Below are positions 7,789 through 47,019 of a stretch of 64,000 nt of DNA, piece after piece. The translations under genes were made by a program, and so were the position numbers. The stretch lies in the NCBI GenBank assembly GCA_017396395.1, contig JAFQMF010000013.1:41161-105160 (forward strand), in the 5' to 3' direction. Source of the DNA: Clostridia bacterium (lineage in GTDB: Bacteria > Bacillota > Clostridia > RUG12999). A model generated the notes under the pieces. That model did not search any database. It had not been told where the DNA came from and was given only the letters and a program-made list of their open reading frames with translations. Each line of letters begins with the position of its first letter. Within the stretch, counting starts at the first letter, position 1.

Positions 7789-7817
7789 TTGACAAAAAGC
7801 AACTAAAATGTTATAAT
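7789..7817 (+). promoter_or_regulatory. sigma-A type promoter for leuA (TTGACA-17-TATAAT)
   Basis: exact consensus hexamers read from sequence. Confidence 0.55.
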
Positions 7818-7860: not shown

Positions 7861-9519
7861 ATGAAAAATGCAGAAAAATATCAAAGACAATATTTTAATC
7901 CGCCTGTAAACGAGTACAATTGGACAAAAAAAGAATTTATTGATAAAGCTCCCATATGGTGCTCAGTTGACCTTCGTGACGGCAATCAGGCACTTATTAT
8001 TCCTATGTCTCTTGAAAAGAAGCTGGAATTTTTTAAGCTTCTAGTTAAAATTGGATTTAAAGAAATTGAGGTGGGCTTTCCTGCCGCTTCCGAAACTGAA
8101 TATACTTTTTTGCGTACTTTAATAGATAACAACTTAATTCCCGACGATGTTACTATTCAGGTGCTTACTCAATCAAGGGAACATATAATTAAAAAGACTT
8201 TCGAGGCACTTAAGGGTATAAAAAAAGCCATTGTTCACGTTATAAATCCCACTTCATATGTTCAGCGTAATCAGGTTTTTAAAGCTACCAAAGTAGAAAC
8301 TGTTTCTGTTGCTCGCGAAGGTGCAAGACTTTGTATGGAATATGCCAAAAAGCACACAGGTGATATTCGTTTTCAGTATTCTCCCGAATCCTTTACAGGT
8401 ACTGAGCCTGAATTTGCACTTCGTGCAATTAATGAGGTTTTAGAGGTATGGAAACCAACTCCCGAAAAAAAGGCAATAATAAACCTTCCTGTAACAGTTG
8501 AGCTTTCACTTCCTCATATATATGCAAATCAGGTAGAATACATATGTGAAAATATAAACTATCGTGACAGTGTAATAATATCACTTCATCCCCATAATGA
8601 CAGAGGCTGCAGTGTGGCAGACGCAGAGCTTGGACTTCTTGCAGGTGCTGACAGGGTAGAAGGTACTCTTTTTGGTAATGGTGAACGTACAGGTAATGTG
8701 GATATAGTTACACTTGCTCTTAATATGTATTGTCACGGTGTAGATCCACTGCTTGATTTTTCCAATTTGCCTGAAATTGCAAAAATATATGAGGAGCAAA
8801 CAGGCAGACCTATATATGACAGACAGCCTTATGCCGGAGAGCTTGTATTTGCGGCTTTTTCAGGTTCACATCAGGATGCTATTACCAAAAGTCTTAAATG
8901 GCATAACAGAAATAAACCTGACCATTGGAGCGTGCCCTATCTTCCCCTTAATCCCAGTGATATTGGCAGAGAATATGAATCGGATGTTATTCGTATCAAC
9001 TCTCAGTCCGGCAAGGGTGGCATAGGATATCTTCTGGAAACAGGTTTTGGATATGTACTTCCCGCTAAAATGCGTGAAGATGTAAGCTATAAGGTGAAAA
9101 GTGTTTCGGACAAAAAACGAGCAGAACTGCTTCCAACAGATGTGCTTGACATTTTCACCAGGTATTATATTAATATAGAAACCCCATACAAGCTTATTGA
9201 TTTCCATCATATCCGTGACGGCAAAGTAACTGCTGTAGTTACACTGGAGGACCACGGACAGCTTCGTGAAATAACGGGTACAGGTAACGGACGACTTGAC
9301 TCAGTAAGTAATGCTATCAAAACCCATCTTGGTATAGATTTTTCTGACCTTACCTATCAGGAACACGCCCTTTCTACAGGCTCCTCCTCACAGGCGGTTA
9401 CATATCTTAGTATTACTCTTCCCGACGGCAGTGTAAGCTGGGGTGCAGGAGTGCATGACGATATTATTACATCTTCTGTACTTGCTCTGTTCTCTGCAAT
9501 TAACCGAACACAAAAATAG
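7861..9519 (+). CDS. leuA: 2-isopropylmalate synthase (long form with C-terminal regulatory domain)
   Basis: DLRDGNQA, HPHNDRG and LFGNGERTGN motifs of the HMGL-like TIM barrel, plus a LeuA-dimer C-terminal region. Confidence 0.88.
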   Translation: MKNAEKYQRQYFNPPVNEYNWTKKEFIDKAPIWCSVDLRDGNQALIIPMSLEKKLEFFKLLVKIGFKEIEVGFPAASETEYTFLRTLIDNNLIPDDVTIQVLTQSREHIIKKTFEALKGIKKAIVHVINPTSYVQRNQVFKATKVETVSVAREGARLCMEYAKKHTGDIRFQYSPESFTGTEPEFALRAINEVLEVWKPTPEKKAIINLPVTVELSLPHIYANQVEYICENINYRDSVIISLHPHNDRGCSVADAELGLLAGADRVEGTLFGNGERTGNVDIVTLALNMYCHGVDPLLDFSNLPEIAKIYEEQTGRPIYDRQPYAGELVFAAFSGSHQDAITKSLKWHNRNKPDHWSVPYLPLNPSDIGREYESDVIRINSQSGKGGIGYLLETGFGYVLPAKMREDVSYKVKSVSDKKRAELLPTDVLDIFTRYYINIETPYKLIDFHHIRDGKVTAVVTLEDHGQLREITGTGNGRLDSVSNAIKTHLGIDFSDLTYQEHALSTGSSSQAVTYLSITLPDGSVSWGAGVHDDIITSSVLALFSAINRTQK

Positions 9520-9550
9520 AACAACTACCAAACTTAAAAGGAGGGATCTT

Positions 9551-11437
9551 ATGCATTTTAAAAAAATAATTTGCTTAGTTTTCTTTTTTGCACTTATTTT
9601 TATCCTTTGCACAAAAGCAGAAATCCTTCCTATAGATTTATCAATTCAGGGGCAGACTGCCGCACAAGGACAGGTTATTGAAGTTCCTGTTACTATTAGT
9701 GCTAACTCCAATGCAAGTGTAGGCACCTTCAGAATTGAATATGACTGTTCAGTGCTTGAATATATGAGTATGGTGCGTACAGGTTGTGTATCACTTGGTA
9801 ACTCAGGGCTTGACCCCATAATCGGAAACCCTGACCAGTTAGGTTTTTACTTTATTTCAAAAAATCTTGGCACAACTCCCCTTACTGCAGGAGGCAATCT
9901 TTTCTATCTACGATTTGCCGTAAAGGAGGATGCTCCAAACGGCAGTTACCCTATTTCCATTATTATACCACCTGGGTGCGGGCTTCAGGATATGGAAGGA
10001 AACGCCTTTTCACTACGCATTATAAATAGTCAAATTGAAATAGATACTCCCCCCGACGGCAAACATATTATCAAAACAGCCTTCGGCTCTGAAGGCGGAA
10101 GCAGTATTTCATACGGAGGAAGATACGGGCAGGGAGAAACACTATCCCTTTCTGCTACTCCTGCTACAGGCTACAGATTTTCCCATTGGGAATGTGAAAA
10201 TGGACATATTTCAAACCCCTATTCTGCCACCTCCACATATACTGCAGGAAATGAAAATGATACCATTTACGCACATTTTAAGCTTAAAACATTTTCTATT
10301 TCAGCATCTGTGGAAGGAAATCAAGGTGGCAGTATTGTGTGTGACAAAGAACATGCCCAATACAACTCAAGTGTTACTGTTACGCTTTTCCCTGATGAAG
10401 ATTATAAGGTTTCTGCCTTTACCGTAAACGGAAAGGATTACCTTGCTTCCCTTAATAATAACACTATAACATTAAATTCTATTCGCTCAGCTCAGGATAT
10501 TAAGGTAACATACAGCTGGTGCGGTGAAGAAATTATAGATAGTATTATTCCCCTCAGGGCAAGTCAAATTTCCTTTTCAAACCAATTAAAAACTATTGAT
10601 ATAACCGCAGATATAACCACTCCGTCTGTGGGATTTGCCCTTAATCTTCCTAACGATGCATATGTTCAGGAAACGGGCAAAAATATAATTACAGGTATGC
10701 TGGGGGATAAAAAATATTTAGTTGCAAAAAAAACAAAGGGGGAAAATCAATCCTTCCTTTTATATGTGAAAAGTGAAAATACTACTTATACATACACAGT
10801 AAATGTTTCCTTTACCCCAGAGTATTTATCAGAAAATATTATATCAGAAATAATCCCTCTTCGCAGTTACGATGCATCCTTCAATAATGAAACAAGGAGC
10901 ATTTTTGTAAAGGCAAGTCTTTTTGATTCTTCTGCAGGTTTTGCTCTTAACCTTTCAAATGGCAGTTATCAGGTGGAAAAGGGCAAAGGAATAGTGTGTG
11001 GCAAGGAAAACGGTAAGCTTTATCTTGTTGCCAAAAAGTCAAACGGACTTTCCCAGAGTTTTAAAGTATTTATAACAACTGAAAGCGGGTACGAATATAC
11101 CTACCATGCTACAATTGAATTTACTGGGGAAAATTACTCCTGTACAGATGTTATAACAGGAATATCTTTGCTAAGATGCGAAAACGGAAGCTTTTCAAAT
11201 GAAACAAGAACAGTTAACATAACCTCACTTAGCCAAGCTCCTTCTTGCGGTGTGTATATTCAAAGCGAAGGGGAAATTGCTGTTTCCACAGATAAAGGTA
11301 TTATTAAAGGCATAAAAGACGGCAAGCTATATTATGTAGTAAAAAGGGTAAATGGACAACAGCAAAACTTTGATATTTCCATTACTACAAATAAGGGGTA
11401 TAAATACACCTTTAATGTAACAGTGAATTTTTCTTAA
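9551..11437 (+). CDS. secreted cohesin-domain protein with Flg_new-like repeats and three tandem ~100-aa C-terminal repeats
   Basis: signal peptide MHFKKIICLVFFFALIFILCTKA; cohesin-like segment VIEVPVTISANSNASVGTFRIEYDCSVLEY...GSYPISII; GYRFSHWECENG repeat; three repeats beginning IIPLRASQISFSNQ / IIPLRSYDASFNNE / ISLLRCENGSFSNE; RBS AAAGGAGGG. Confidence 0.85.
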   Translation: MHFKKIICLVFFFALIFILCTKAEILPIDLSIQGQTAAQGQVIEVPVTISANSNASVGTFRIEYDCSVLEYMSMVRTGCVSLGNSGLDPIIGNPDQLGFYFISKNLGTTPLTAGGNLFYLRFAVKEDAPNGSYPISIIIPPGCGLQDMEGNAFSLRIINSQIEIDTPPDGKHIIKTAFGSEGGSSISYGGRYGQGETLSLSATPATGYRFSHWECENGHISNPYSATSTYTAGNENDTIYAHFKLKTFSISASVEGNQGGSIVCDKEHAQYNSSVTVTLFPDEDYKVSAFTVNGKDYLASLNNNTITLNSIRSAQDIKVTYSWCGEEIIDSIIPLRASQISFSNQLKTIDITADITTPSVGFALNLPNDAYVQETGKNIITGMLGDKKYLVAKKTKGENQSFLLYVKSENTTYTYTVNVSFTPEYLSENIISEIIPLRSYDASFNNETRSIFVKASLFDSSAGFALNLSNGSYQVEKGKGIVCGKENGKLYLVAKKSNGLSQSFKVFITTESGYEYTYHATIEFTGENYSCTDVITGISLLRCENGSFSNETRTVNITSLSQAPSCGVYIQSEGEIAVSTDKGIIKGIKDGKLYYVVKRVNGQQQNFDISITTNKGYKYTFNVTVNFS

Positions 11438-11451
11438 GAAAGGAATAAAAG

Positions 11452-11988
11452 ATGATAAAACAAAAGTATGATAAAAAGGTATATTTTACGTTAGTTGGAT
11501 TTATTCTTGTAGGAGTGCTTTTATTTGCTACAATTTTTGCCCGAAACTCCATGGAAATAGAAAAAAGTAAAGATGCCTTGGCAGATGCAAAAGGCAATAC
11601 TCCTATGAATGAACAGGCTTACTATGGCAGTGAAGCTGTTAAGCTTTTAGGGCAGGTATATGACAAAGAAGGTAACCTGCTGGATGTTTCTTCATTAAAG
11701 GAAGAAACATCATTTTTCTCAGCTGATGGCAAGGAGATAAACCCTCCAACAGTAAGCCCGTCAGAATATGAAAAAGCCGTAAAAGGCATCTCCTATGAGG
11801 ATTTGAAAAGCCTTATTGGTGGAGAAGGTGAAATAACAGGAGAAGTTGATAAACCTGGAGATGAATTTTATACAGTTTGTTACTATTACTATGGTGATAA
11901 AGCAAACTCCTCTGCATCCTTTATTTTTCAGGGCGACAGGCTTAAATCCAAAACCAATACGGGAATTATCCAAAAGGAAGATAAATAG
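11452..11988 (+). CDS. membrane-anchored hypothetical protein (N-terminal TM, extracytoplasmic domain)
   Basis: TM segment VYFTLVGFILVGVLLFATIF; lies 14 bp downstream of the cohesin gene and is followed by a terminator. Confidence 0.65.
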   Translation: MIKQKYDKKVYFTLVGFILVGVLLFATIFARNSMEIEKSKDALADAKGNTPMNEQAYYGSEAVKLLGQVYDKEGNLLDVSSLKEETSFFSADGKEINPPTVSPSEYEKAVKGISYEDLKSLIGGEGEITGEVDKPGDEFYTVCYYYYGDKANSSASFIFQGDRLKSKTNTGIIQKEDK

Positions 11989-12023: not shown

Positions 12024-12060
12024 AAAAACGCAGGACTGATTAATCAGTCCTGCGTTTTTA
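12024..12060. terminator. bidirectional rho-independent terminator
   Basis: ACGCAGGACTGATTAATCAGTCCTGCGT hairpin plus T-run. Confidence 0.8.
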
Positions 12061-12083: not shown

Positions 12084-13103
12084 TTATCTGAAAAGTTTCA
12101 TAAATGCCTTTGCCATATTAGGCGCAAAGGATTCTGCACCAGGCCCTAAAATAATAAGACCATTTCTACCATCGTCAAAATAATTTACCTTCTGGTTAAG
12201 TGCCTCTGCAATAGCTCTGAGAGGAAGTAAAGTTCTTCCGTTAATTATCTGTGCAGGCACATCAATGGGAATATTTTCACCGCAAACAGAAATTTCTTTT
12301 GCACCAATTTTTATAATAATGCCCGCTAAATCAGTTTCAATAATAACCTTGTTATTTGCTTCGTCAAATCTCACTACTGCACCAAGGCTTTCAGCAACAA
12401 ATCTTGCAGGAAGAAGTGTTCTTCCGTTTTTTACAACAGGAGCTACATCAAGAGGAGTCTCTACTCCCTTAATAAACGCCTTATTGCTTCCCACATACAT
12501 AATAATATTTTCGCTGTCTTCCGCGTCAGGAAGCACCTCTACAGGACCTTCTGCCGAAGCGGCTCCGCCAATAATAGTGGCATTTGCATCAGCATAACGA
12601 ACACGGCAATCAAAACAACCGGGAACTTCCGATCCGTTTACATAGCAGGTCTGTATAATTGCAGAATCAAGATTGTCATATACCGTTCTCCACACACCCA
12701 CTCGCTGTACAGGGTCAGAGATTGTCCACAAATACTGCCCCGCTGAAAATGCCTGCCCCGACCCAATTGAAATTCCAACCCAGGAATTGTCTTTAAAGTC
12801 AACCCATTCTCTTGTAGCAATGGGTTTTGTAGCAATAGTACTTTCATAACTATCTGCCCATACATAAAGTCTGATAGTAAGTGCACCTACAGAATCCCCA
12901 TAGCTGGGACAGTTCATATCAAAAGCCGAAAATGGTTTATCTATAGACAACTTTTGTGCTATTACAGTGCCTGTTTTTAATTCGTTTGCAGTATGGGTTG
13001 CAGCCGTATCATAAAGATATACAAGTTCACCTGCTGCCATAGTGGCTAATCCGCAACTGAATAAAATTGCAACAATTGTTAAAACAATAAAAAGTTTTTT
13101 CAT
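12084..13103 (-). CDS. copper amine oxidase N-terminal (stalk) domain repeat protein, secreted
   Basis: signal peptide MKKLFIVLTIVAILFSCG; two C-terminal repeats NGRTLLPARFVAESLGAVV / NGRTLLPLRAIAEALNQKV typical of the Cu_amine_oxidN1 domain; start set at internal ATG with GGAGG RBS. Confidence 0.8.
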   Translation of the reverse strand: MKKLFIVLTIVAILFSCGLATMAAGELVYLYDTAATHTANELKTGTVIAQKLSIDKPFSAFDMNCPSYGDSVGALTIRLYVWADSYESTIATKPIATREWVDFKDNSWVGISIGSGQAFSAGQYLWTISDPVQRVGVWRTVYDNLDSAIIQTCYVNGSEVPGCFDCRVRYADANATIIGGAASAEGPVEVLPDAEDSENIIMYVGSNKAFIKGVETPLDVAPVVKNGRTLLPARFVAESLGAVVRFDEANNKVIIETDLAGIIIKIGAKEISVCGENIPIDVPAQIINGRTLLPLRAIAEALNQKVNYFDDGRNGLIILGPGAESFAPNMAKAFMKLFR

Positions 13104-13398
13104 ATAGGAAATACCTCCAGGTGTGTTAATCATTATATATTTTATCATATTTTTATATAATTCACAATACTTTTTCCTTACAAAAAAAAACTAAAATTTT
13201 GTGCAGATTAACTAAAACAATATATCATATAAAAAACAACCAATTTTTTCGGTAATATGACTAATTTTTAACAAAATTTTTAGTTGTTATTCTATACTGG
13301 GATACTTGACGCAAATTACAAAAAGTAGTATAATATAAACTAATTACTATATATTATTTATAATCACAATAATTATAAAATATTTGGAGGTTTTAAAA

Positions 13399-29954: not shown

Positions 29955-29988
29955 AAAAAAAGCCGAGATTTATCTCGGCTTTTTTTAC
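29955..29988. terminator. bidirectional rho-independent terminator
   Basis: AAAAAAAGCCGAGATTTATCTCGGCTTTTTTT. Confidence 0.8.
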
Positions 29989-31070
29989 GCTACTTTATTT
30001 TCTCCGTTTGCGTAGTTTATAAAAACTCCCTGCTGTACATTATAGCAATATACGCAAAAAGACAAGCCTTTCCCCTTATCTTCTACTGAATAGGCTTCCA
30101 TTAAAACACCACTTGCTACAAGATTATCCCCCTGAAAAACAGGAGTTACTCTATACATAACGTGATTTCCTGTTTTGTCAATATAGCTGTCCACCATATT
30201 TTCAAAGGGTAACATTCCTTCCACGTTCATATACCTTGTGCCGGTAATTAAATTACGGGGATTGGCATTTTCTCCTGTTAACTGAAATCCCAGAAGGTGA
30301 CATCTGTTATAAAGGTATTTTCCCGAAATGAAATCATATTGTCTGTTTTTCCACCCTGTAGGCTTAATACTGCTTATATTCCCTCTTTTTTCAGTTGGCA
30401 TTGTATCCAAGGATACAGAAGCCACACATACATCGCATCTTCCAAGACCATCTAAACTGCTGTAATATTCAAAAGAGGCAGGAATAATTTCATAATCCTT
30501 AAAAAAAGGTTTATTATTATTTATTTTTATATACGCACTTTTGGAGTATTCTTTTAACTCTCCCAAAAGATAATCGTATTCCCCCTGCTGGAAAAGGTCA
30601 CGGATAATGTAAACCTTTTCTGTAGCTTCGTCCCATGCCACCCCAAGATTAAAGCTCTCTGCAATAAAACGGATGGGAAGCATCGTCCTGTCATTATAAA
30701 CAGAAGGAGCAACATCCAAAGTAAACAAGGCTCCGTTTAAATAAGCTTTTTTACTGTCTATAATAAGCTTTATAGTATCATTTTCAAGAGTAAGAACAGC
30801 CGTTTTCTCTTTTCCTTTCCAGTCCACCTTGCCACCAAAGGCTTCAATAATAGCACGAACAGGCACTAATGTTCTGCCTGTTTTTATTATAGGCTCTGTA
30901 CCTCTGCCTGGGTCAATTTCCTGATTTTCTCCGTTTACTGCCATTAAAGGATTGCCAATCTGCATACTTATTACAACATCTTCAGGCTTTTGGGATGCAA
31001 TTACATGAGGAGATAAAAGGAGGAAGCATATTAAAAATGCAAATACTCTATAAATTCTGTTTTTGTTCAT
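29985..31070 (-). CDS. secreted DNA/RNA non-specific endonuclease (EndA/Endonuclease_NS_2-like) fused to a copper amine oxidase N-terminal stalk domain
   Basis: signal peptide MNKNRIYRVFAFLICFLLLSPHVIAS; CuAO-N repeat RTLVPVRAIIEAFGGKV / RTMLPIRFIAESFNLGV; nuclease block YNRCHLLGFQLTGENANPRNLITGT aligns to the FDRGHLLGYAL...NPKNI region of EndA. Confidence 0.78.
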   Translation of the reverse strand: MNKNRIYRVFAFLICFLLLSPHVIASQKPEDVVISMQIGNPLMAVNGENQEIDPGRGTEPIIKTGRTLVPVRAIIEAFGGKVDWKGKEKTAVLTLENDTIKLIIDSKKAYLNGALFTLDVAPSVYNDRTMLPIRFIAESFNLGVAWDEATEKVYIIRDLFQQGEYDYLLGELKEYSKSAYIKINNNKPFFKDYEIIPASFEYYSSLDGLGRCDVCVASVSLDTMPTEKRGNISSIKPTGWKNRQYDFISGKYLYNRCHLLGFQLTGENANPRNLITGTRYMNVEGMLPFENMVDSYIDKTGNHVMYRVTPVFQGDNLVASGVLMEAYSVEDKGKGLSFCVYCYNVQQGVFINYANGENKVA

Positions 31071-35763: not shown

Positions 35764-36273
35764 ATGGCACTCGAAGAAAAGAACGAAATAGTTTTGGAAG
35801 ATGCTTCTGCAAAAGAAGAAAATCTTGAAGGTTTAAGCTTTTCAGGAACTTATACTCCAAAAATTGACGAAAAGGGTCGTTTTTTCATTCCAGGCAAATT
35901 TAGGGATATTCTTGATAATGAGGGCACATGTACCATCACTCACGGACTTGACGGGTGTTTGTGGCTTTACAGCCAACCTGTATGGAAAAAGGTTTTTGCA
36001 AACCTTTCTAAGCTTTCTGATACAAAAAAAGGCGATAGATATTTAAAACGTTTCTTCCTTGGCGGTGCTAAGGAGTGCGAGCTTGATAAACAAGGGAGAG
36101 TTCTTATCCCCCCTGACCTTCGTGCTTTTGCAAATATTGAAGGTGATATTCAGCTTGTAGGCGTTGGAAATAAAATTGAAATATGGGCACAGGACAGCTG
36201 GACAGGCTATGGAGAAGATGATGATTTGGATGCAGAATACATAGCAGAAAATCTGGAAGAGCTTGAACTGTAA
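35764..36273 (+). CDS. mraZ: transcriptional regulator MraZ
   Basis: two MraZ (SpoVT-AbrB-like) repeats: KIDEKGRFFIPGKFRDIL and ELDKQGRVLIPPDLRAF; start may be slightly later than the annotated ATG. Confidence 0.85.
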   Translation: MALEEKNEIVLEDASAKEENLEGLSFSGTYTPKIDEKGRFFIPGKFRDILDNEGTCTITHGLDGCLWLYSQPVWKKVFANLSKLSDTKKGDRYLKRFFLGGAKECELDKQGRVLIPPDLRAFANIEGDIQLVGVGNKIEIWAQDSWTGYGEDDDLDAEYIAENLEELEL

Positions 36274-36298
36274 CCTATATTAATGAAAGGAAACTGTC

Positions 36299-37234
36299 AT
36301 GGAGTTTAAACATATACCCATAATGTTTGATGATTGCATAAATATGCTAAACATACAGCAAGACGGAATATATGTTGACGGAACTTTAGGCGGTGGCGGG
36401 CACAGCTACGGAATATGCAGTCGTTTGGGAGATAAGGGAAGGCTTATTGGTATTGACCGTGACTCAGAAGCTATTTCTGCTGCAAAAAAACGGTTGGAGA
36501 AATTTGAAGGTAAAGTAACCTTCGTAAACGACAACTATGCAAACATTAAGAATGTCCTTTCTAAAGAGGGACCGGTTCTCATAAACGGTGCCTTACTTGA
36601 TTTGGGTGTTTCTTCGTACCAGCTGGACAATCCTGAGCGAGGTTTTTCCTATATGCATAATGCCCCCTTGGATATGCGTATGAACGCTCAGGATGGCTTC
36701 AGCGCATATGAGCTTGTGAACACTTACAGCGAAAAGGACCTTTTCCGTGTAATAAAAGATTATGGTGAAGAAAAGTGGGCATCAAGAATTGCAAAATTTA
36801 TTGTGGAAGCAAGAAAAAAAGAGGATATTAAAACTACTTTTCAGCTTAACGATATAATAAAATCAGCAATTCCCGCAGGTGCAAGAAAAGATGGCGGACA
36901 TCCCTCCAAAAGAACTTTTCAGGCAATAAGAATTGAAGTAAACGGGGAAATTGAAAAGCTGAAAAATGCACTAAGTGATTTTTTTGATGTACTTGCTCCC
37001 GGAGGAGTGCTGGCGGTAATAACCTTCCACTCTCTAGAAGACAGAATAGTAAAACAGCTCTTTACTGAGCTTTCAACAGGTTGTACCTGTCCCCCAAGCT
37101 TTCCCATATGCGTATGCGGAAAAAAGCCAAGAGGAAAAATAATTAATAAAAAACCCATGGTGGCATCAGGAGAAGAAATTGAAAATAACAGCCGAAGCAA
37201 AAGCGCAAAGCTTCGCGGTATTACTAAACTATAA
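36299..37234 (+). CDS. rsmH: 16S rRNA (cytosine1402-N4)-methyltransferase
   Basis: [13 protein letters not shown]...[13 protein letters not shown]-binding signature. Confidence 0.95.
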
Positions 37235-37248
37235 AAGGCAGGAAGTGA

Positions 37249-37647
37249 TTGAAAATGGCAGATAATCTGGCGCGAATACTGGCAGATGACGGGCTGGCGT
37301 ACCAGCAAGAACTTTATGAGCGAAGACAAAGAAAAGCAAAGGCAAAAAGAACTGAACGTTTATCTGCTGTAGTAGGCATTATTCTTGCTTTTTCTCTTGC
37401 ATTTACCATTGTGTCAAGATATATGGCGATTGCAGAACAACAAAATGAAATCACAGCAGCAGAAAATAACCTTAATAATATAAAAAGCTCCAATGACCAA
37501 AAAGAGGTTATGTTGGAAAGTGCTATGACACTTGAGGAGCTGGAAGAAAACGCACGAGTACGACTTGGCATGAATAAGCCTGCCAACAATCAAATAGTAT
37601 ATGTATGCATTACTAAAGAAGATACCGCTTGCGTTGTGAAAAACTAA
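37249..37647 (+). CDS. ftsL: cell division protein FtsL (septum formation initiator family)
   Basis: small bitopic protein with a single TM (VVGIILAFSLAFTIV) followed by a coiled coil; positioned after rsmH. Confidence 0.75.
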   Translation: MKMADNLARILADDGLAYQQELYERRQRKAKAKRTERLSAVVGIILAFSLAFTIVSRYMAIAEQQNEITAAENNLNNIKSSNDQKEVMLESAMTLEELEENARVRLGMNKPANNQIVYVCITKEDTACVVKN

Positions 37648-37838
37648 AAAGTTTAGTGGTAATAATCAGAACTTTTTTTGCTTATACATAATATTACAGA
37701 ATATATTGATATCAACTAAAGGTAATGCTCGAAAATCCGGGCCTTGCCTTTTTTGAGATTTATAGAGTAAGGTATTAACCTTTAAAATTTAAACATTAAA
37801 TTAGATTTTGCCAAAAATATGGCGGACAGGAGCACAAA

Positions 37839-40028
37839 ATGGCCAGAGATAATTCCAAAACTATGATGCGTAATCGAATTCTCGCTTTTGCACTTATATT
37901 CCTTTCTGTAATAGTGTTTTTATGTGGACGTATTTTTTATATTCAGATGATTAAGGGCAATACCTACAAGGCTATGGCTCTTGACCAGCAAACAAAGGAA
38001 AAGGAAATTACTCCCAAAAGAGGAACTATATATGACAGAAACGGCAAAGAACTGGCTGTAAGTGCTACTGTTGATACTGTTGTAGCTGACCCTAAAATTA
38101 TTAAATCAAAGAAAAATGCCGAGGATATTGCCAACACACTTTCCCCTATTTTAGGTATGGAAAAAGCGGATATACTTGCTATTGTTAACAAAGAAAGCAG
38201 TTTTGAGTGGGTAGCAAAAAAGATTGATTCAGAAAAATCTGCTCAGATACGCAAATACATTTCCGGCAAGGATGAAAAAGGAAACAAGCTTTCCAAAAAG
38301 GAGATGGAAGGCCACGATTTAAGCGGTATTTCCCTTATTGAGGATACTAAAAGATTTTATCCAGGCGGCAGTCTTGCTTCCCATGTTATAGGCTTTACAG
38401 GCACTGATAATCAGGGACTGGAGGGCATTGAGGCAATTTATGACAAATTTTTAAAAGGTAATGCAGGCAAAATTGTAACCTCAAATAAAAGTACAGGCTC
38501 TCTTCCTCAGGATTATGAAAAATACTTTAATGCTCAGGACGGGGACAATATTGTTCTTACTATAGACTCAAATATTCAGCGTTTTGTAGAAAAGGCACTT
38601 GATGATGCATATTTAAAATATCAGGCTCTTGGTGGTGCTTGTGTACTTGTTACAAACCCTAACACGGGAGAAATTCTTGCTATGGCAACTCGCCCCACTT
38701 TTGACCTTAACAGTCCTCGTGTTCTTTCAACAGACCAGAGTGAGCCTGCAACACTTGAACAGCTTCAGGAGCGTTGGAGAAATAAAGTTGTTGTAGATGC
38801 TTATGAACCAGGTTCAGTATTTAAGCTTATTACCTGTTCTATTGCATTAGAGGAAAAGGTTACAAATCTTACTGACCCATATTTCTGCCCGGGATATCTG
38901 GTAGTAGGCGGACAAAAAATTCATTGTTTTAAAACTACAGGACACGGTGCGAGTAATCTTTTAAAGGGAACTGTGGATTCCTGTAACCCCGTTTATATGC
39001 AGGTTGCATCCAAAATCGGAAAAGATACTATGTTCAAATATTTTAAATCCTTTGGTTTCAGAGAAACTACAGGGTTTGACCTTCCCGGCGAGGCAGTAGG
39101 TTCATATTGGAACTATAATAATTATAACGAAACGGAGCTTGCCACCTCCTCCTTTGGTCAGGGTTTTACTGTTACACCATTACAGATGGCAACAGCAGTT
39201 GGTGCTCTTGTTAATGGCGGATATTTATATAAGCCCTTTATAGTTAAAGAAATTGTAGATAGCGAAGGAAATCGCGTTGAATCTACAACTCCTACACGCA
39301 TCAGACAGGTACTTTCCAAAGAAACATCTGATACTATGCGTTATATTATGCAAACGACTCTTGTGGAATCGGGAAGTCTTGCAAAGGTAGATGGCTACGA
39401 AATAGGCGGAAAAAGCGGAACAAGTGAAAAACTTCCCAGAGGAAACGGACAGTATATAGGCTCTTACTGCAGTGTAGCTCCTATAAATGATCCACAGATT
39501 TTATGCCTTGTTATTATTGACGACCCAAGAGGGGCAAGCTACTATGGCGGACAGACCGCTGCTCCTGTTGCAAGCAGTATTATGGAGCAGGTGCTTCAGT
39601 ATTATAAAGTTCAGCCAAACGGCGATCAAGTAAAAGCTTCTTCTGATGATACAGTAATTCCTTCAGTTATTGGAAAAACCGCAGAGGATGCAAAGAGAAT
39701 TGTTTCTTCCTTTGCACTTCAGTGTACTATATATGGTTCAGGTGATACTGTAATTTCCCAAGACCCCCCTGCAGGAACCCATGTGCGTAACAATTCCTAC
39801 GTTTCCATTACTCTTGGCACCTCTGCCGATGCTTCAGATGAGGTAGCAGTTCCCAGTCTTATAGGAAAAAGTATGGAGGAAGTAAATACAATAGTCGCAG
39901 AATCGGGACTTACTTTAAAGGTGGCAGGTGCATCAGGCGGAAATGTAATATCCCTTAATCAAAATCCTGTTGCAGGCAAAAAAGTAAAACGAGGAAGCAT
40001 GGTAACCGTAACATTTGGACAGCAATAA
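37839..40028 (+). CDS. class B penicillin-binding protein (FtsI/SpoVD family) with two C-terminal PASTA domains
   Basis: dimerisation domain; transpeptidase motifs SVFK, SCN, KSGT; two PASTA repeats at the C-terminus. Confidence 0.9.
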   Translation: MARDNSKTMMRNRILAFALIFLSVIVFLCGRIFYIQMIKGNTYKAMALDQQTKEKEITPKRGTIYDRNGKELAVSATVDTVVADPKIIKSKKNAEDIANTLSPILGMEKADILAIVNKESSFEWVAKKIDSEKSAQIRKYISGKDEKGNKLSKKEMEGHDLSGISLIEDTKRFYPGGSLASHVIGFTGTDNQGLEGIEAIYDKFLKGNAGKIVTSNKSTGSLPQDYEKYFNAQDGDNIVLTIDSNIQRFVEKALDDAYLKYQALGGACVLVTNPNTGEILAMATRPTFDLNSPRVLSTDQSEPATLEQLQERWRNKVVVDAYEPGSVFKLITCSIALEEKVTNLTDPYFCPGYLVVGGQKIHCFKTTGHGASNLLKGTVDSCNPVYMQVASKIGKDTMFKYFKSFGFRETTGFDLPGEAVGSYWNYNNYNETELATSSFGQGFTVTPLQMATAVGALVNGGYLYKPFIVKEIVDSEGNRVESTTPTRIRQVLSKETSDTMRYIMQTTLVESGSLAKVDGYEIGGKSGTSEKLPRGNGQYIGSYCSVAPINDPQILCLVIIDDPRGASYYGGQTAAPVASSIMEQVLQYYKVQPNGDQVKASSDDTVIPSVIGKTAEDAKRIVSSFALQCTIYGSGDTVISQDPPAGTHVRNNSYVSITLGTSADASDEVAVPSLIGKSMEEVNTIVAESGLTLKVAGASGGNVISLNQNPVAGKKVKRGSMVTVTFGQQ

Positions 40029-40048
40029 AAAGGACGGAGGAATTTCTC

Positions 40049-41476
40049 TTGTACTTAAGTGATTTACTAAAAAACATTGAATATATATCCTGTGATGCTA
40101 CTTTCGATCCTGAAATTCGCGAAATTACAAACAATTCGGGAGAAATTAAAGCAGGAGATGTTTTTGTGTGTATTGCGGGATTTAAAACAGACGGACATAA
40201 CTTTGCTTTAAATGCCCAGAAGGCAGGAGCATCTTGTATTATTGCTTCTGAAAAAATTGATGTATCTGTTCCTGTTATATACGTAGAAAACACAAGAAAA
40301 GCTCTTGCTCAAAGCTCAAAATTTATATATGGCGACCCTTCAAAAAAACTTAAAATAATAGGAATTACAGGAACAAACGGAAAAACTACCACCTGCTATC
40401 TTATTAAAAATATATTGGAGTCAGCAGGCAAAGTGGTGGGTTTAATTGGAACAAATGAAACTGTTGTAGGAAATACACGGATTCCCGCAATGCGTACTAC
40501 TCCTGAATCTTATCAGCTTAACAAGCTTTTTTCGGATATGCTTGATATGGGTGCACAGTACTGCGTAATGGAGGTTTCTTCCCACTCTCTTGACTTATTC
40601 AGAGTAGAAGGAATAAGCTTTACTGCCGGAGGATTTACTAACCTTACCCATGACCATCTTGATTTTCATAAAACTATGGAAAACTATTTTAATGCTAAAG
40701 CAAAGCTGTTTTCTATGTGTGAATTTGGATGTGTAAATGTTGACGATGACTGGGGTGCAAAGCTTCCCCAAAAAGCTAATGGAAGGGTTATTACATATTC
40801 TGTTAATTCTCCCTCTGATAACAAAGCAGAAAATATTATTTTTCATCAAGGCAGCAACGAATTTGATTTAAATGGAACTCATTTTACAATGAAAATTCCA
40901 GGACTTTTCTCTGTGTATAACGGTCTTCTGGCTATCTCAATCTGCTATGGTCTTGGTCTTAGCTATGTAGATATAGCAAAAGGTCTTTCAGATTCTATGG
41001 GTGCAGAAGGCAGAGCACAGGTATTAAATACTGATACAGATTATAAAGTAATTATAGATTATGCTCACACTCCCGATGGACTTTATAATATTCTTTCAAC
41101 ACTAAAAAAATTTGCTACAGGCAGAATAATATGTGTGTTTGGCGCAGCAGGTGAACGAGATTCTGTAAAGCGTCCCGATATGGGAGAAATAGTAGGAAAA
41201 TATGCAGATTTAGCTATTATTACTGCTGACAATCCCATAAATGAAGATTTAACTCTTATTTGTTCACAGGTAGAGGAAGGAATATTAAAAACTTCTTGTC
41301 CCTACAAAATAATTTATGACCGAAAAAATGCAATTATAGACGCTTTAACACTTGCACGCAAGGAGGATATAGTGCTTCTTGCAGGAAAAGGACACGAAAC
41401 ATATCAGCTTATAGGTGATGAAAAAGTTCCTTTTAGTGAAAAAAATATTGTTTTAGAATATCTTAATAAAAACTAA
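40049..41476 (+). CDS. murE: UDP-N-acetylmuramoyl-L-alanyl-D-glutamate--2,6-diaminopimelate ligase
   Basis: Mur ligase P-loop GITGTNGKTT; DNPR motif region; TTG start preceded by AGGACGGAGGA RBS. Confidence 0.9.
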   Translation: MYLSDLLKNIEYISCDATFDPEIREITNNSGEIKAGDVFVCIAGFKTDGHNFALNAQKAGASCIIASEKIDVSVPVIYVENTRKALAQSSKFIYGDPSKKLKIIGITGTNGKTTTCYLIKNILESAGKVVGLIGTNETVVGNTRIPAMRTTPESYQLNKLFSDMLDMGAQYCVMEVSSHSLDLFRVEGISFTAGGFTNLTHDHLDFHKTMENYFNAKAKLFSMCEFGCVNVDDDWGAKLPQKANGRVITYSVNSPSDNKAENIIFHQGSNEFDLNGTHFTMKIPGLFSVYNGLLAISICYGLGLSYVDIAKGLSDSMGAEGRAQVLNTDTDYKVIIDYAHTPDGLYNILSTLKKFATGRIICVFGAAGERDSVKRPDMGEIVGKYADLAIITADNPINEDLTLICSQVEEGILKTSCPYKIIYDRKNAIIDALTLARKEDIVLLAGKGHETYQLIGDEKVPFSEKNIVLEYLNKN

Positions 41477-41526
41477 CTCAGTCATATATAATTTACTTAT
41501 ATATGATATATCGAGGAGGATAAAAA

Positions 41527-42498
41527 GTGATTAATATACAAATGCTTATAGTTGGTTTTATAGCGGCTTTTATAATAGGTATTTTAATATCTCCGCCACT
41601 TATCAGCTTTTTTAAAAGATTAAAATGCGGGCAGGAAATTCGTGATGAAGGTCCATGCTGGCATGAATCAAAATCAGGCACTCCCACAATGGGAGGGATG
41701 ATTTTCATACTTGCCTCCGCAATTCCCGCAATAATAGTATCTAATAGAAACTTAGTTACAATAATGCTTATATTCCTTAGTGTTTCCTTTGGTGTAGTAG
41801 GCTTTGTAGATGATTTTATTAAAGTAAAATTCAAGAGGAATTTAGGTCTTACAGAGTTACAAAAGTTAGGACTTCAGATTGTTGCCTCCTGTCTTTTCGT
41901 ATGGGTGTTAAAAGATACTCTTATAAACACTCCCTTTATTATTCCCTTTACAAATATTTCAATTAATTTGGGAATATGGTATCTTCCTCTTTCAGTAATT
42001 GTAATTATCAGTTCAGTAAATGCTGTTAACTTAACTGACGGACTGGATGGTCTTGCATCCAGTGTTACAACTGTTGTGGCAATATTTTTTACGATTATTT
42101 CACTTATCACAAAAAATATTCCTGTAAGCATTTTCGGAAGTACCATAATTGGGGGGACAGGTGCATTTTTAATTTTCAATAAGTTCCCTGCAAAAATATT
42201 TATGGGAGATACCGGCTCGCTTTTTTTAGGCGGTGCTCTTGCTGGTATGGCAATATTGACCGGCACTCCGCTATTTTTACTGATTGCAGGAGGAATACTT
42301 GTTATTGAAGCTCTTTCCGTTATAATTCAGGTAGGCGTTTATAAATTAACTAAAAAAAGAGTTTTTAAAATGGCTCCTATTCACCATCATTTTGAAATGT
42401 CAGGCTTTAAAGAGCAGAAAATTGTAATAATCTTTACTCTTTGTTCTCTATTGCTTTGCATAATTGCTTACGGTGGTTTTTTAGTACACTTATCATAA
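41527..42498 (+). CDS. mraY: phospho-N-acetylmuramoyl-pentapeptide transferase
   Basis: MraY motifs incl. NAVNLTDGLDGLA and the PIHHHFE C-terminal loop; GTG start with GAGGAGGA RBS. Confidence 0.9.
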   Translation: MINIQMLIVGFIAAFIIGILISPPLISFFKRLKCGQEIRDEGPCWHESKSGTPTMGGMIFILASAIPAIIVSNRNLVTIMLIFLSVSFGVVGFVDDFIKVKFKRNLGLTELQKLGLQIVASCLFVWVLKDTLINTPFIIPFTNISINLGIWYLPLSVIVIISSVNAVNLTDGLDGLASSVTTVVAIFFTIISLITKNIPVSIFGSTIIGGTGAFLIFNKFPAKIFMGDTGSLFLGGALAGMAILTGTPLFLLIAGGILVIEALSVIIQVGVYKLTKKRVFKMAPIHHHFEMSGFKEQKIVIIFTLCSLLLCIIAYGGFLVHLS

Positions 42499-42525
42499 GT
42501 TTTAAATTTTTGGAGGGCGAAAGCA

Positions 42526-43701
42526 TTGGTTAAAAAAATACGCTTTAAAAGAAAAAATACATTCGGTATGCTTGATATCGAGCTATTGTCTATTATTTCC
42601 ATAATGGTGCTTTTCGGTCTTGTTATGGTAGGTAGTGCCAGCTCTGTTTCAGCACTTTACAAATATGGGGACAGTATGCTTTTTCTTCGCAAACAGCTTA
42701 TTGTAGCATTAGCAGGCTTTGTTGCTATGTATTTAATATCCCGAGTTGATTATCATAAAATTGCCTCTCCTCTTATGATTATGATAGGATATGGCATAGT
42801 ATGGGTGCTTATGGTACTGGCAGCTTTTATAGGCGAAGATATTAACGGTGCACACCGTTGGATTACCATAGGAGGAACAAGCTTACAGCCTTCTGAGCCT
42901 GCAAAAATTGTTCTGGTTGTTTTAACTGCATATGTTTGCTCCAGACAAAAAAAGGAAGCTTTGCGTACATTTAAAGGCGGTTTTTTAACATATGTAATTA
43001 TACTGGGTGTTTCTGTAATTCCTCTTATTTTGGAAAGACACAAAAGTGCCTGTATAATATTTGCCCTACTGGTTTTCTCTATAGCATTTATAGGCGGTGC
43101 AAATCTTAAATATTATTTTGCTGCTGCACCTGTTGCATTAGTGGGATTAATAGTTTGGTTTATGAGTGATACATACAGCAGCAACAGAATTATGTCTATG
43201 TTCAATCCCTTCCTTGATCCAAGAGGAACAGGTTATCAGGCTGTACAGTCCTTATATGCAATTGGTTCAGGCGGTCTTTTTGGACTGGGACTTGGACGTT
43301 CTCAGCAAAAAATTATGTATATTCCCGAACCTCAGAACGACTTTATATTCTCCATTATTTGCGAGGAGCTGGGTTTTATAGGTGCCATTGGAGTAATTAT
43401 GCTTTTTGTATTATTTATGTTCAGGTGTATAAAAATCGCCTCAGAAGCTCCCGATAAATTAGGAAAGCTTATTGCTATGGGACTTACAACACTTATTATG
43501 TCACAGTTTATAATTAATATAATGGTTGTAACTGCTACAGGCCCTGTAACAGGTATGCCACTTCCTTTTTTCAGTGCGGGAGGAACTAATCTTCTGTTTA
43601 CTCTTGCAGGTATGGGACTGCTCCTTAATATTTCAAGACAGTCGGTAAAAAGGGTAAAACAGCCTGTTAAAACTATTGAAACTAAAAAAAGATATATCTG
43701 A
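42526..43701 (+). CDS. SEDS-family peptidoglycan glycosyltransferase (FtsW / SpoVE)
   Basis: FtsW/RodA/SpoVE family 10-TM pattern with conserved PEPQNDFIFS; TTG start with TGGAGGG RBS. Confidence 0.88.
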   Translation: MVKKIRFKRKNTFGMLDIELLSIISIMVLFGLVMVGSASSVSALYKYGDSMLFLRKQLIVALAGFVAMYLISRVDYHKIASPLMIMIGYGIVWVLMVLAAFIGEDINGAHRWITIGGTSLQPSEPAKIVLVVLTAYVCSRQKKEALRTFKGGFLTYVIILGVSVIPLILERHKSACIIFALLVFSIAFIGGANLKYYFAAAPVALVGLIVWFMSDTYSSNRIMSMFNPFLDPRGTGYQAVQSLYAIGSGGLFGLGLGRSQQKIMYIPEPQNDFIFSIICEELGFIGAIGVIMLFVLFMFRCIKIASEAPDKLGKLIAMGLTTLIMSQFIINIMVVTATGPVTGMPLPFFSAGGTNLLFTLAGMGLLLNISRQSVKRVKQPVKTIETKKRYI

Positions 43702-43722
43702 TTTTCGGAGGTAAGTTTTTAT

Positions 43723-44814
43723 ATGCGTATTTTATTTGCAACAGGAGGTACAGGAGGACATATTAACCCTGCCATAGCTATAGCAAAAGAATTCAGAAAA
43801 AATCATCCCCAATGTGAAATACTTTTTGTTGGAACAAAACGTGGTCTTGAAGGAAAACTTGTTCCAAGAGAAGGTTTTGATATTAACTTTATTGAAACAG
43901 TGGGATTTAAACGCAAAATTACCCTTGAAAATATTGTAGTGGCATACAAGGCATTTACAAGTATGCTGCACACACGCAAAATACTAAAGGAATTTTCTCC
44001 TGATATTGTAATAGGTTGCGGCGGTTATACCAGCGGTCCTGTTGTAATGGAAGCCGCACTCAAGAAAATTCCTACTCTCATTCATGAACAAAATGCTTTT
44101 CCTGGCATAAGCAATAAAATGCTCAGCGGAAAGGTTAACACAGTATGTATAAGCTTTGAGGACACTGTAAAATATTTTCCCAAAGCTAAAAAAGTTGTTT
44201 ATACAGGTAATCCGGTACGTCCTTCAATGTTCAGTTATACCAAGGAAGAAGCCAGACAAAAGCTTGGTTTGGATTCCCGTCCTCTTTTTGTTTCTGTGGG
44301 AGGAAGTCTTGGTGCTGGCAGAATAAATGCTGAAATGAAAAAGCTGATAAAAAAGCTTCCTTCGGATATACAGATTATGTGGGCAACAGGCAACAGGGAA
44401 TATGAAGAAATTATTTCAGAAATTGGAGAAATTCCTTCTAATGTTACAATTTCTCCATACATCTACAATATGGAGGAAGTGCTGTCCGCTGCAGATCTTG
44501 TGTTATCCCGTTCAGGTGCAATTACTCTTACTGAGCTTTGTGCCTGCGGAACACCGTCAGTGCTTATTCCTTCTCCTAACGTAGCGGAAAATCATCAGGA
44601 AATTAATGCACGCACTCTGGAAGAAAAGGGTGCCTCAGTAGTGATATGCGAAAGGGAACTTGATGAAAATATACTTTTTGATACTGTAATAAGATTGATT
44701 TATGACACAAACCGTCTTAATAAAATGAGCGAAAAAGCAAAGCAGATGGCAAAGCCGGATGCTACATCTTTGATTTATACTGAATGTATCAGTCTGTTAG
44801 GGAATAAATCTTAA
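43723..44814 (+). CDS. murG: undecaprenyldiphospho-muramoylpentapeptide beta-N-acetylglucosaminyltransferase
   Basis: MRILFATGGTGGHINPAIAIAKEF N-terminus; GT28 domains. Confidence 0.92.
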   Translation: MRILFATGGTGGHINPAIAIAKEFRKNHPQCEILFVGTKRGLEGKLVPREGFDINFIETVGFKRKITLENIVVAYKAFTSMLHTRKILKEFSPDIVIGCGGYTSGPVVMEAALKKIPTLIHEQNAFPGISNKMLSGKVNTVCISFEDTVKYFPKAKKVVYTGNPVRPSMFSYTKEEARQKLGLDSRPLFVSVGGSLGAGRINAEMKKLIKKLPSDIQIMWATGNREYEEIISEIGEIPSNVTISPYIYNMEEVLSAADLVLSRSGAITLTELCACGTPSVLIPSPNVAENHQEINARTLEEKGASVVICERELDENILFDTVIRLIYDTNRLNKMSEKAKQMAKPDATSLIYTECISLLGNKS

Positions 44815-44903
44815 ACAGTAACCCCTCACCCCTCCTCAGCATAAAATATACTAATACCGCAATTTTTTTCGGTAATATTGCTGTTTGGAGGTTCGTAATA
44901 AAA

Positions 44904-46154: not shown

Positions 46155-46214
46155 TTTTACAGGCAAAAAATAACAGAGAGGAAGCTTTTTTGCAAAAAGC
46201 TAAGGTTTAAACTA

Positions 46215-46964: not shown

Positions 46965-47019
46965 AAATTTAATTGAAATTTTTCTACAAGGAATACATTT
47001 AGAAATAAAGGACAAGATT

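Follow-up and report, generated by a model that had tools for sequence, protein, structure and literature searches.

A rare C-terminal Ig-like triple repeat on a secreted single-cohesin protein of an uncultured ruminant-gut Clostridia bacterium, a candidate module for surface retention or targeting

Introduction

In gut and rumen bacteria, cohesin–dockerin assemblies are increasingly found beyond the classical cellulosomes, often without an account of their attachment to the cell; a use of the cohesin–dockerin pair beyond fibre degradation has been documented in the rumen (PMC6487960). The locus described here raises the question of attachment in a compact form. It belongs to an uncultured spore-forming Clostridia bacterium of the ruminant gut, and it encodes a secreted 628-aa protein with one cohesin near its N-terminus and three tandem repeats at its C-terminal end. 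What might the cohesin bind, and what might the repeats do for it? By “the window” we mean the whole 64-kb stretch of DNA that was analysed. A preliminary description of the locus had proposed a signal peptide, a cohesin, two Flg_new-type repeats, and a triple repeat not assigned to a known domain, and this architecture holds; the domains were examined with Pfam and NCBIfam.

The Gene and Its Product

The open reading frame at 9443-11437 of the forward strand has a well-placed start at 9551, where an ATG lies 7 nt 3' of AAAAGGAGGG and opens a protein of 628 aa. The features of the gene are as follows.

9551..11437, + strand, including the stop codon: gene of the 628-aa secreted cohesin / Flg_new_2 / triple-repeat protein (ORF, Pfam)
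9551..9619, + strand: signal peptide, aa 1-23, predicted SPase I cleavage after TKA (sequence, hydrophobicity, orthologues)
9635..9961, + strand: cohesin domain, Pfam match aa 29-137 (PF00963)
10082..10516, + strand: two Flg_new_2 (divergent InlB B-repeat) domains, aa 178-246 and approximately aa 247-322 (PF18998)
10526..10831, + strand: repeat R1, aa 326-427, Ig-like beta-sandwich (repeat comparison, family profile, three-repeat model)
10832..11140, + strand: repeat R2, aa 428-530, Ig-like beta-sandwich, the modelled unit (AF2, family profile)
11144..11434, + strand: repeat R3, aa 532-628, the protein's end (repeat comparison, family profile, three-repeat model)

The N-terminus, MHFKKIICLVFFFALIFILCTKA with E following the cut, is a signal of the Sec/SPase-I type; the hydrophobicity of the protein peaks there, and a C-x-A context with the cleavage before the next residue is common to the protein and its orthologues. 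Read from the sequence, the protein would leave the cell through Sec and lose its signal peptide by cleavage.

The cohesin gene is identical, with 0-1 nt differences, in five of the six metagenome contigs compared, which come from the ruminant gastrointestinal tract (XIEF21) and other samples. A 625-aa “variant” in locus L007 turned out to be an artefact of a scaffold N-gap. The profile search of representative genome contigs, with full-length alignment, found a single locus, that on the contig of P0006, which implies that the species of the window is absent from those representatives.

The best sigma-70-like promoter of the region lies upstream of leuA (7861-9519), and the next terminator lies past the second gene downstream.

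7789..7817, + strand: best sigma-70-like promoter, 12/12 consensus with a TG extension
12024..12059, no strand assigned: bidirectional intrinsic terminator with convergent genes on either side (A-run, 11-bp GC-rich stem, TTAA loop, T-run)

The terminator is strong: its hairpin, at 12029-12054, together with the T-run gives a dG of -28.8 kcal/mol and a z of -8.9. Because the 31-bp gap between leuA and the cohesin gene, as read, contains neither a promoter-like site nor a hairpin, leuA, the cohesin gene and the 178-aa gene that follows may be transcribed together; co-transcription of the last two is probable.

The Cohesin and Its Possible Dockerin Partners

As the preliminary description had it, the N-terminal domain is a cohesin: PF00963 matches at E 8.7e-14 and 52.3 bits, more than twice the Pfam cutoff of 24.1, over profile positions 2-114 of 139, and the fold probably runs on as far as about aa 165 (nt 10045). 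The orthologues score 34-49 bits, and the most conserved stretch across their family, LGFYFISKNLGxTPLT, falls within this domain. In a PDB sequence search the top eight matches are all cohesins (6kgc, 5nrk, 1g1k, 2vn5, 4ums and others), although weak ones at E 2e-3 to 0.2, and rank 9 is a non-cohesin. The closest solved relatives are the type-I cohesins of C. acetobutylicum CipA, A. cellulolyticus and C. cellulolyticum (E 2e-3 to 4e-2), and by its sequence the domain resembles type I more than type II or III.

The two domains that follow were also correctly recognized earlier, although Flg_new_2 (PF18998; E 2.9e-15, 56.4 bits against a cutoff of 23.6, in two stretches) is a better fit than the classic Flg_new PF09479; the boundary of the second domain was taken from the sequence by reading. 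They would serve as spacers.

For many cohesin-like modules outside cellulosomes a non-dockerin or structural role is suspected, and it could be asked whether the present domain, too, binds no dockerin at all, having some other ligand or a purely structural part to play. We regard this as unlikely. Its similarity to the solved cohesins is indeed weak (E 2e-3 at best), it is present in a single copy, and HMM, phmmer and regex searches found no dockerin in the 64-kb window, the 178-aa protein included. Against such a role stand the PF00963 score and the conservation of the block within the cohesin. About 1 kb and two genes away from the orthologue P0006 (GCA_045546415.1) is the gene of a 1412-aa SASA/CE4 esterase with a probable dockerin in two segments, GDIDFNGKVDIRD... 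and GDVTGDGRLTIDD...; the dockerin lies at aa 1101-1160, its Dockerin_1 match covers 1-56 of the 57 profile positions, and it lends indirect support to the earlier expectation of dockerin-bearing partners. At 21.7 bits this match is just under the cutoff of 22.9, a point in favour of the non-dockerin role, but the canonical two-segment motif adjoining an orthologue argues for docking, as do the three clear dockerins borne by P0047, a DUF7743/LRR_5 protein that is a remote match of the repeat profile. As far as family membership allows one to judge, the type-I-like cohesin would then dock a dockerin-bearing protein in a Ca-dependent manner.

The C-Terminal Repeats

The three repeats of about 100 aa are real, with a pairwise identity of 33-45%, slightly above the 30-40% estimated before. 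Each of them matches the family profile at E 1e-35 to 1e-40, and they are far beyond chance since they are kept in the orthologues. The family has motifs of its own, PLR, SAGF and YxVA(K/R)(K/R)xxGxxQxF, and a set of polar and aromatic residues, R11, S34, Y64, Q75 and Y89, is invariant across the repeats. The window protein is atypical in having the R1 type for all three repeats.

No Pfam or NCBIfam family was found above threshold on the repeats. Three candidates deserve mention. TraK_N (PF06586) reaches 24.2 bits on the whole protein against a cutoff of 24.8, and 2 of 15 repeats match it, at best with E 0.007 and only over a local hairpin of ~45 aa, which does not amount to membership. The cadherin-like PF12733 is matched by 1 of 15 repeats at E 0.017, and hhalign against PF12733 copies gives 42% probability over 38 columns. 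DUF7743 (PF24893) has no direct Pfam match among the repeats tested; Pfam calls it in 3 stretches of P0047, and hhalign of the repeat profile against the three repeat units of that protein yields a probability of 86% and an E of 5e-6 over 71 columns. Like the present repeats, DUF7743 and PF12733 occur in surface proteins of Firmicutes as repeated beta-sandwiches of ~90-120 aa; the repeat family differs from both in its own motifs and its strict C-terminal arrangement of three units.

The AF2 model of R2 (pLDDT 92.8) is a beta-sandwich of nine strands. Its closest folds are generic Ig and cadherin domains, with cadherin EC domains at TM ~0.5, and accessory beta-sandwich domains of glycoside hydrolases; SusE-like/utilisome proteins and cadherin/Rib adhesin domains are also among the neighbours. 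The model of all three repeats (pLDDT 86.5, pTM 0.43) has low-confidence linkers, and the repeats are predicted to be independent domains arranged as flexible beads and not as a packed trimer. The pI of the module ranges over 4.3-9.1 and is mostly 4.7-6.6; a basic charge signature of the kind that binds wall polymers was not seen, these values being mostly acidic to neutral. As the module is not basic, forms no pseudo-trimer in the model and has generic folds, a ligand-binding role or a spacer role is equally compatible with its structure.

The Repeat Module on Other Exoproteins

The preliminary description did not contain what is the most informative hint of the role of the triple repeat, namely that it is a common C-terminal module of unrelated exoproteins. 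The family is very rare, with 47 proteins at E<=1e-3 in a profile search among 1.84 billion (1.84e9) representatives. In most of the strong non-fragment matches, a module of the order R1-R2'-R3 forms the C-terminal end of the protein or is followed by one further repeat, and this order is kept in at least 6 architectures, with Peptidase_S8, Transglut_core, LRR_5, Big_2, PEGA and Cohesin (P0038, P0045) as partner domains. The module is found on at least 4 proteins of the metagenome-assembled genome (MAG) GCA_045546415.1 (P0006, P0031, P0029, P0039) and on at least 3 of GCA_054294905.1 (P0028, P0034, P0032). Its carriers in the sister genomes are the cohesin orthologue, a subtilase, transglutaminase-like proteins, a BspA-type LRR protein and a Big_2 protein, and two further cohesin architectures also end in it. 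The module-bearing proteins of both MAGs showed no SLH, CWB2 or LysM domain and no LPXTG anchor; in both, several unrelated exoproteins share one C-terminal module and no other anchor of these kinds. Inspection of the surroundings of the other module-bearing genes revealed no conserved neighbour, for example a sorting system dedicated to them. In a cluster look-up, every module protein was an unnamed singleton, and a homologue search with the module alignment recovered the window protein alone.

This distribution fits a common module for surface retention or targeting. It is because the three Ig-like repeats are the common C-terminal end of otherwise unrelated exoproteins in the sister genomes that we take them as the part that would retain or target these proteins, whether at the envelope of the cell or at a ligand they have in common, in a manner specific to the lineage. 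The 628-aa protein would then be a minimal surface protein resembling the anchoring scaffoldins, its cohesin docking a dockerin protein and its C-terminal module holding or targeting the whole at the envelope or a ligand, a proposal to which we give an even chance. Tentatively, and with rather less expectation, one may go further and see in the module R1-R2'-R3 a new class of non-covalent envelope anchor, a functional analogue of SLH and CWB2 with an unrelated fold; as such an anchor it might, with the same low expectation, display on the cell surface the cohesin as a docking site, along with proteases, transglutaminase-like enzymes and LRR adhesins.

The polarity might also be reversed. The module could be an adhesin-like or CBM-like binder of a plant, host or microbial polymer, taking the part fused to it, be it cohesin, protease, transglutaminase or LRR, to that substrate, which we find rather doubtful; that the proteins are free, or held at the cell by other means, for instance by the cohesin binding a cell-bound dockerin protein, seems to us doubtful to a similar degree. 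The fold neighbours among the glycoside hydrolase accessory, SusE-like/utilisome and cadherin/Rib adhesin domains point in this direction, and so do the acidic to neutral charge, the invariant residues R11, S34, Y64, Q75 and Y89, and the beads-on-a-string flexibility of the three domains.

The generic Ig-like fold, the flexible arrangement and the lack of a detectable family would also suit passive spacers on a soluble, released adaptor, the module having spread by domain shuffling with no function in common. Spacers, however, are normally placed between functional parts, and this module sits at the extreme C-terminus; its ordered R1-R2'-R3 arrangement is kept across at least 6 architectures, and the invariant polar residues argue for selection on function. 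We therefore hold passive spacers to be very improbable.

The Downstream 178-aa Gene

A second gene starts 14 bp past the stop codon of the cohesin gene.

11452..11988, + strand: gene of a 178-aa protein (ORF, own RBS)
11482-11544, + strand: N-terminal TM helix, aa ~11-31 (single hydrophobic helix)
11749-11976, + strand: extracytoplasmic DUF3862/BLIP-like C-terminal domain, aa ~100-175 (homologue matches)

The single-pass membrane protein described earlier at this distance, before a terminator, is confirmed by the ORF, its hydrophobicity and the hairpin. The window protein itself has no Pfam match at E<=1 and no PDB sequence match; DUF3862 (PF12978) is weakly matched by 9 of 12 homologues over the C-terminal ~75 aa (best E 2.6e-4), and precomputed tables list BLIP (PF07467). 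The TM segment is among the best-conserved parts of the family, which argues for a retained anchor; compared with the small extracytoplasmic DUF3862/BLIP proteins, the TM helix takes the place of the lipoprotein signal. A conserved pair YDxxG...(20 aa)...YDxxG was considered as a dockerin and rejected, since it does not match the dockerin Ca-loop pattern.

Is this protein the partner of the cohesin protein, as had been suggested? In a two-gene unit, the TM-anchored DUF3862/BLIP-like protein would act at the membrane as receptor or partner of the cohesin protein, tethering or regulating it. The 14-bp gap, the position of the terminator only past the second gene, and the high conservation of the TM helix would agree with such a unit, and the pair is still adjacent in the window despite differing flanking genes. 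In L009 and L010, orthologue, PALP, BLIP and galK genes form one same-strand cluster, and in L001 orthologues of both genes lie within 5 kb. Yet the synteny in relatives is loose: the gene of the PALP enzyme intervenes between the two, or ~5 kb with other inserts in L001, and the stretch of L002 that was read has no orthologue of the 178-aa gene. Nor does the BLIP-like gene accompany the other module-bearing genes, the protein has no dockerin signature, and shared ancestry alone could explain the synteny that there is. We think a two-gene unit, and with it the suggested partnership, quite unlikely.

Comparison with Known Systems

The nearest parallels to a surface protein of the proposed kind are SdbA and OlpA of Acetivibrio (Clostridium) thermocellus and ScaE of Ruminococcus flavefaciens, which share with the 628-aa protein secretion, N-terminal cohesin(s) and a spacer. 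These are single-cohesin anchoring scaffoldins, in which a dockerin protein docks on the cohesin and attachment to the cell surface falls to the C-terminal part, with either three SLH repeats or a sortase signal of the LPXTG type. The 628-aa protein ends instead in three Ig-like repeats of an undescribed family; it has no SLH or Gram_pos_anchor match in Pfam or NCBIfam, and its end, ...NVTVNFS, lacks a hydrophobic tail. In contrast to a classical primary scaffoldin, with several cohesins and a CBM3 and/or an X-dockerin, it has one cohesin, no CBM and no dockerin, and the 64-kb window contains no cellulosomal gene cluster. With its single cohesin, and with CBM, SLH and LPXTG all absent, the protein fits the earlier view of a surface scaffold or adhesin rather than a classical scaffoldin.

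Three tandem units at a protein terminus, common to many exoproteins of one genome, are also the pattern of the SLH and CWB2 triplets. SLH is helical and CWB2 alpha/beta, and both form a compact pseudo-trimer. The present repeats differ in having an unrelated fold, with three independent domains predicted (pTM 0.43) and no pseudo-trimer.

A closer likeness in composition is found in gut ruminococci, where cohesin proteins are joined to Flg, Ig-like and LRR domains with varied anchors, and where the anchors of these atypical scaffoldin-like proteins are C-terminal TM helices or LPXTG (bioRxiv 10.64898/2026.02.05.704116). They share with the 628-aa protein the combination of cohesin, Flg and Ig-like domains, a gut anaerobe as host, and non-canonical anchoring, and in both the function is probably not cellulolysis. 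The 628-aa protein differs in coming from another, uncultured Clostridia lineage, in its triple Ig-like module, and in having only one cohesin.

Significance

The cohesin and Flg_new parts of the protein are ordinary, and the value of the locus lies in the module and its distribution, whichever reading holds. What the locus defines is a C-terminal module, very rare and not catalogued before, with which a single lineage of uncultured Clostridia equips several kinds of exoproteins. If the module binds a ligand, it would point to one substrate targeted by the whole set of proteins. If it is truly an envelope anchor, it would represent a new route of protein display in Gram-positive anaerobes, give a sequence signature from which the surface proteome of the lineage could be predicted, and offer a new display tag.

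The cohesin gene and its setting

The cohesin gene, contained in an open reading frame of 9443-11437 on the + strand in the ORF list, starts with the ATG at 9551, 7 nt downstream of AAAAGGAGGG, and encodes 628 aa. Its N-terminus, MHFKKIICLVFFFALIFILCTKA followed after the cleavage point by EIL, is a typical Sec signal, in line with the signal peptide of the preliminary description, and the C-x-A cleavage context is common to the orthologues. The cohesin and the two Flg_new-type repeats claimed there are also borne out by Pfam, with Cohesin at aa 29-137 (E 8.7e-14; 52.3 bits versus a cutoff of 24.1) and Flg_new_2 in two stretches (E 2.9e-15); NCBIfam gave zero matches to the protein. The features of the locus are as follows.

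7861-9519: leuA, ending 31 bp ahead of the cohesin gene
9551-11437 (+): cohesin gene
10526-11434 (+): three C-terminal repeats (aa 326-427, 428-530 and 532-628), mutual identity 33-45%
11452-11988 (+): 178-aa protein gene, 14 bp past the cohesin stop, with its own Shine-Dalgarno sequence
12029-12054: GC-rich hairpin downstream of the 178-aa gene, with an A-run and a T-run either side (dG -28.8 kcal/mol, z -8.9), serving both genes that converge there

Because neither a promoter-like site nor a hairpin or terminator was found in the 31-bp gap behind leuA, and because the sole perfect sigma-70 consensus (7789-7817) lies ahead of leuA, the three genes may form one transcript. An amino-acid biosynthesis gene may in that case be transcribed together with two envelope protein genes.

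A small family of cohesin proteins

In a search of 5.8 billion clusters, only six full-length relatives were found, at ~38% identity and with lengths of 767-1089 aa. All six combine a cohesin, two Flg_new_2 repeats and three C-terminal units. Since their N-termini are longer by up to 440 residues that are absent here, the 628-aa protein is a minimal version. The family-wide peak of conservation falls within the cohesin (LGFYFISKNLGxTPLTxGG..Y.RF.VK), and the eight best matches of this region among solved structures are all cohesins. At their head stand 6kgc, 5nrk, 1g1k and 2vn5, type-I cohesins from mesophilic clostridia, though these matches are weak (E 2e-3 to 4e-2).

The C-terminal repeat module

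The three tandem repeats stand as originally described, with a measured identity slightly above the 30-40% first given, and the repeat-family profile scores each of them at E 1e-35 to 1e-40. They had also been placed outside known domains, and this holds: not one Pfam family was matched consistently by 15 repeat sequences (TraK_N by two, Cadherin-like by one), and neither the 2025 copy of Pfam nor NCBIfam r20 includes the module. By profile-profile comparison the repeats may be distantly related to those of P0047, a protein with DUF7743 calls in Pfam (hhalign, 86% probability over 71 columns); the match to Cadherin-like PF12733 is weaker (42% over 38 columns). To our knowledge, no function is known for either family. 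P0047 itself, a weak relative by the repeat profile, is a 1159-aa protein with three Dockerin_1 domains (E 8.9e-32), BspA LRR_5 and three DUF7743 units.

The module is rare. An exhaustive search of 1.84 billion representative proteins with the repeat HMM gave only 47 matches at E<=1e-3, 20 of them at E<=1e-10. Most strong non-fragment matches have the order R1 (a canonical unit), R2' (divergent and longer, ~120-140 aa) and R3 (canonical again), and R3 either closes the protein or has one more repeat after it. In the 628-aa protein, however, each repeat is closer to R1 of the homologous modules than to R2' or R3, and it seems from this that the ancestral R1-R2'-R3 order was swapped for three R1-type copies with the count of three kept. 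What precedes the module varies from protein to protein.

N-terminal parts of module-bearing proteins
P0031: subtilase S8
P0029, P0032: transglutaminase-like with PEGA or CarboxypepD_reg
P0034, P0037: BspA-type LRR_5
P0039: Big_2
P0033: PEGA
P0027, P0028, P0035: Flg_new_2
P0038, P0045: two further cohesin architectures

The module-bearing proteins checked for cluster membership are all singletons from one contig each, and they group by genome: GCA_045546415.1 carries the cohesin orthologue P0006 together with P0031, P0029 and P0039, and GCA_054294905.1 carries the orthologue P0028 together with P0034 and P0032. No SLH, CWB2 or LysM domain and no LPXTG anchor was found in these proteins, no further repeat copy elsewhere in the 64-kb window, and no conserved gene accompanying the module in the neighbourhoods of the genes that encode it.

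The 178-residue protein

As claimed, the gene 14 bp on encodes a single-pass membrane protein and is followed by a terminator. Its one strongly hydrophobic helix (aa ~11-31) is among the top-conserved segments of a 12-member alignment (L14, F17, V20, G21, L24 and F25 invariant), and this conservation argues for a retained membrane anchor, not a cleaved signal. The last ~75 aa are similar to DUF3862/BLIP-like domains. DUF3862 is matched weakly by nine of the 12 homologues and precomputed tables list PF07467 (BLIP), while a fresh hmmscan of the window protein itself gave zero matches at E<=1. No PDB relative was found. Between the helix and this domain lies a tandem (V/L)YDxxGxxx(D/N) motif, 20 aa apart (aa 68-107), in which G74, D78, G93, N97, P99 and T100 are invariant; it is not dockerin-like by HMM.

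The gene order at related loci is as follows.

L009 4854-9728 and L010 4828-9749, one strand: hydE-hydF-cohesin/Flg_new orthologue-PALP (310 aa)-BLIP-like gene (175-178 aa)-galK, gaps of 13-28 bp
L001: BLIP-like gene about 5 kb of other genes away from orthologue-PALP
L002: dockerin esterase gene inserted after PALP
Window: cohesin gene adjoining the 178-aa gene, PALP missing between, leuA and serC/serA flanking

The 178-aa protein had been proposed as a membrane-anchored partner of the cohesin protein. Adjacency and helix stand, and the two genes are repeatedly linked across related loci; however, the differing spacing and flanks make the linkage recurrent but loose, no BLIP-like gene was found beside other module-bearing genes, and inherited gene order could suffice. 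A partnership, which would be compatible with the other readings, is quite unlikely.

Dockerins

No dockerin occurs in the 64-kb window, which says little for a genome of several Mb. In the related loci, about 200 kb in all, there is one probable dockerin, in a 1412-aa secreted protein (L002, the same locus as L011, 9134-13369 (-); GCA_045546415.1, contig JAZQCS010000009.1) whose gene is convergent with, and two genes away from, that of P0006. The protein comprises a SASA-like esterase region, three ~150-aa repeats, Flg_new_2, the dockerin segment and a CE4 deacetylase domain. The segment (GDIDFNGKVDIRDAVDVLKTIAG...GDVTGDGRLTIDDAKKLLKYISR, aa 1101-1156) is internal and canonical-looking, and it covers positions 1-56 of the 57 in Dockerin_1 at 21.7 bits, just below the cutoff of 22.9. 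Among the representative proteins, P0047 too has three clear dockerins. A cohesin and a dockerin thus seem to occur together in one or more sister genomes of the lineage, and the carbohydrate esterase is a candidate cargo of the cohesin family. That the cohesin-like domain is not a dockerin binder, which is compatible with the other readings, we consider unlikely.

The host organism

Five of the six metagenome contigs compared, most of them labelled XIEF21, carry the same locus with 0-1 nt differences across the cohesin gene. A 625-aa "variant" without a Pfam record (L007 2587-4464) is an assembly artefact, the scaffold having a run of 10 N. The window (GC about 36%) also contains the following.

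54787-55641 (-), 60698-62218 (-) and 35764-49466 (+): DUF11 repeat protein, SipL (SPOCS)/LysM sporulation protein, spoVA-like genes and complete dcw cluster

The dcw cluster, spoVA-like genes and SipL/LysM protein are consistent with an uncultured spore-forming member of Clostridia. Cu_amine_oxidN1 looks like a further exoprotein module that recurs in the lineage: it occurs twice, with an N-terminal domain, in a secreted protein convergent with the cohesin and 178-aa genes (12084-13148 (-)), is joined to a non-specific DNA/RNA endonuclease in another (29985-31070 (-)), and is found in a 1100-aa protein near the module-bearing subtilase gene of L012.

A possible role of the module

The module is C-terminal, common to unrelated exoproteins of one genome and their sole candidate anchor, and its distribution therefore fits a surface-retention or targeting module. 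Three points speak against a wall anchor: the module is acidic to neutral, is not compact in the predicted structure and has no conserved neighbouring gene. It is doubtful, though conceivable, that the module binds a ligand in the manner of an adhesin or CBM, and very unlikely that the repeats are passive spacers. The reading to which we give about an even chance is that of a minimal anchoring-scaffoldin-like cohesin protein, which the three Ig-like repeats would retain at or target to the cell surface. Such a protein would be functionally like the single-cohesin anchoring scaffoldins SdbA, OlpA and ScaE, but their defining anchor (SLH or LPXTG) is absent from it. Nor is it a primary scaffoldin by the multi-cohesin/CBM definition, in line with the earlier view that it is no classical cellulosomal scaffoldin. 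Overall, the preliminary observation is confirmed, and its interpretation is partly supported.

Cohesin proteins of this kind are already known, since gut ruminococci were recently described to have cohesin proteins in which Flg, Ig-like and LRR domains are combined with unconventional anchors (bioRxiv 10.64898/2026.02.05.704116), and roles of cohesin-dockerin systems beyond fibre degradation have been described in the rumen (PMC6487960). The novelty lies in the C-terminal module and in how it is distributed at the genome level.
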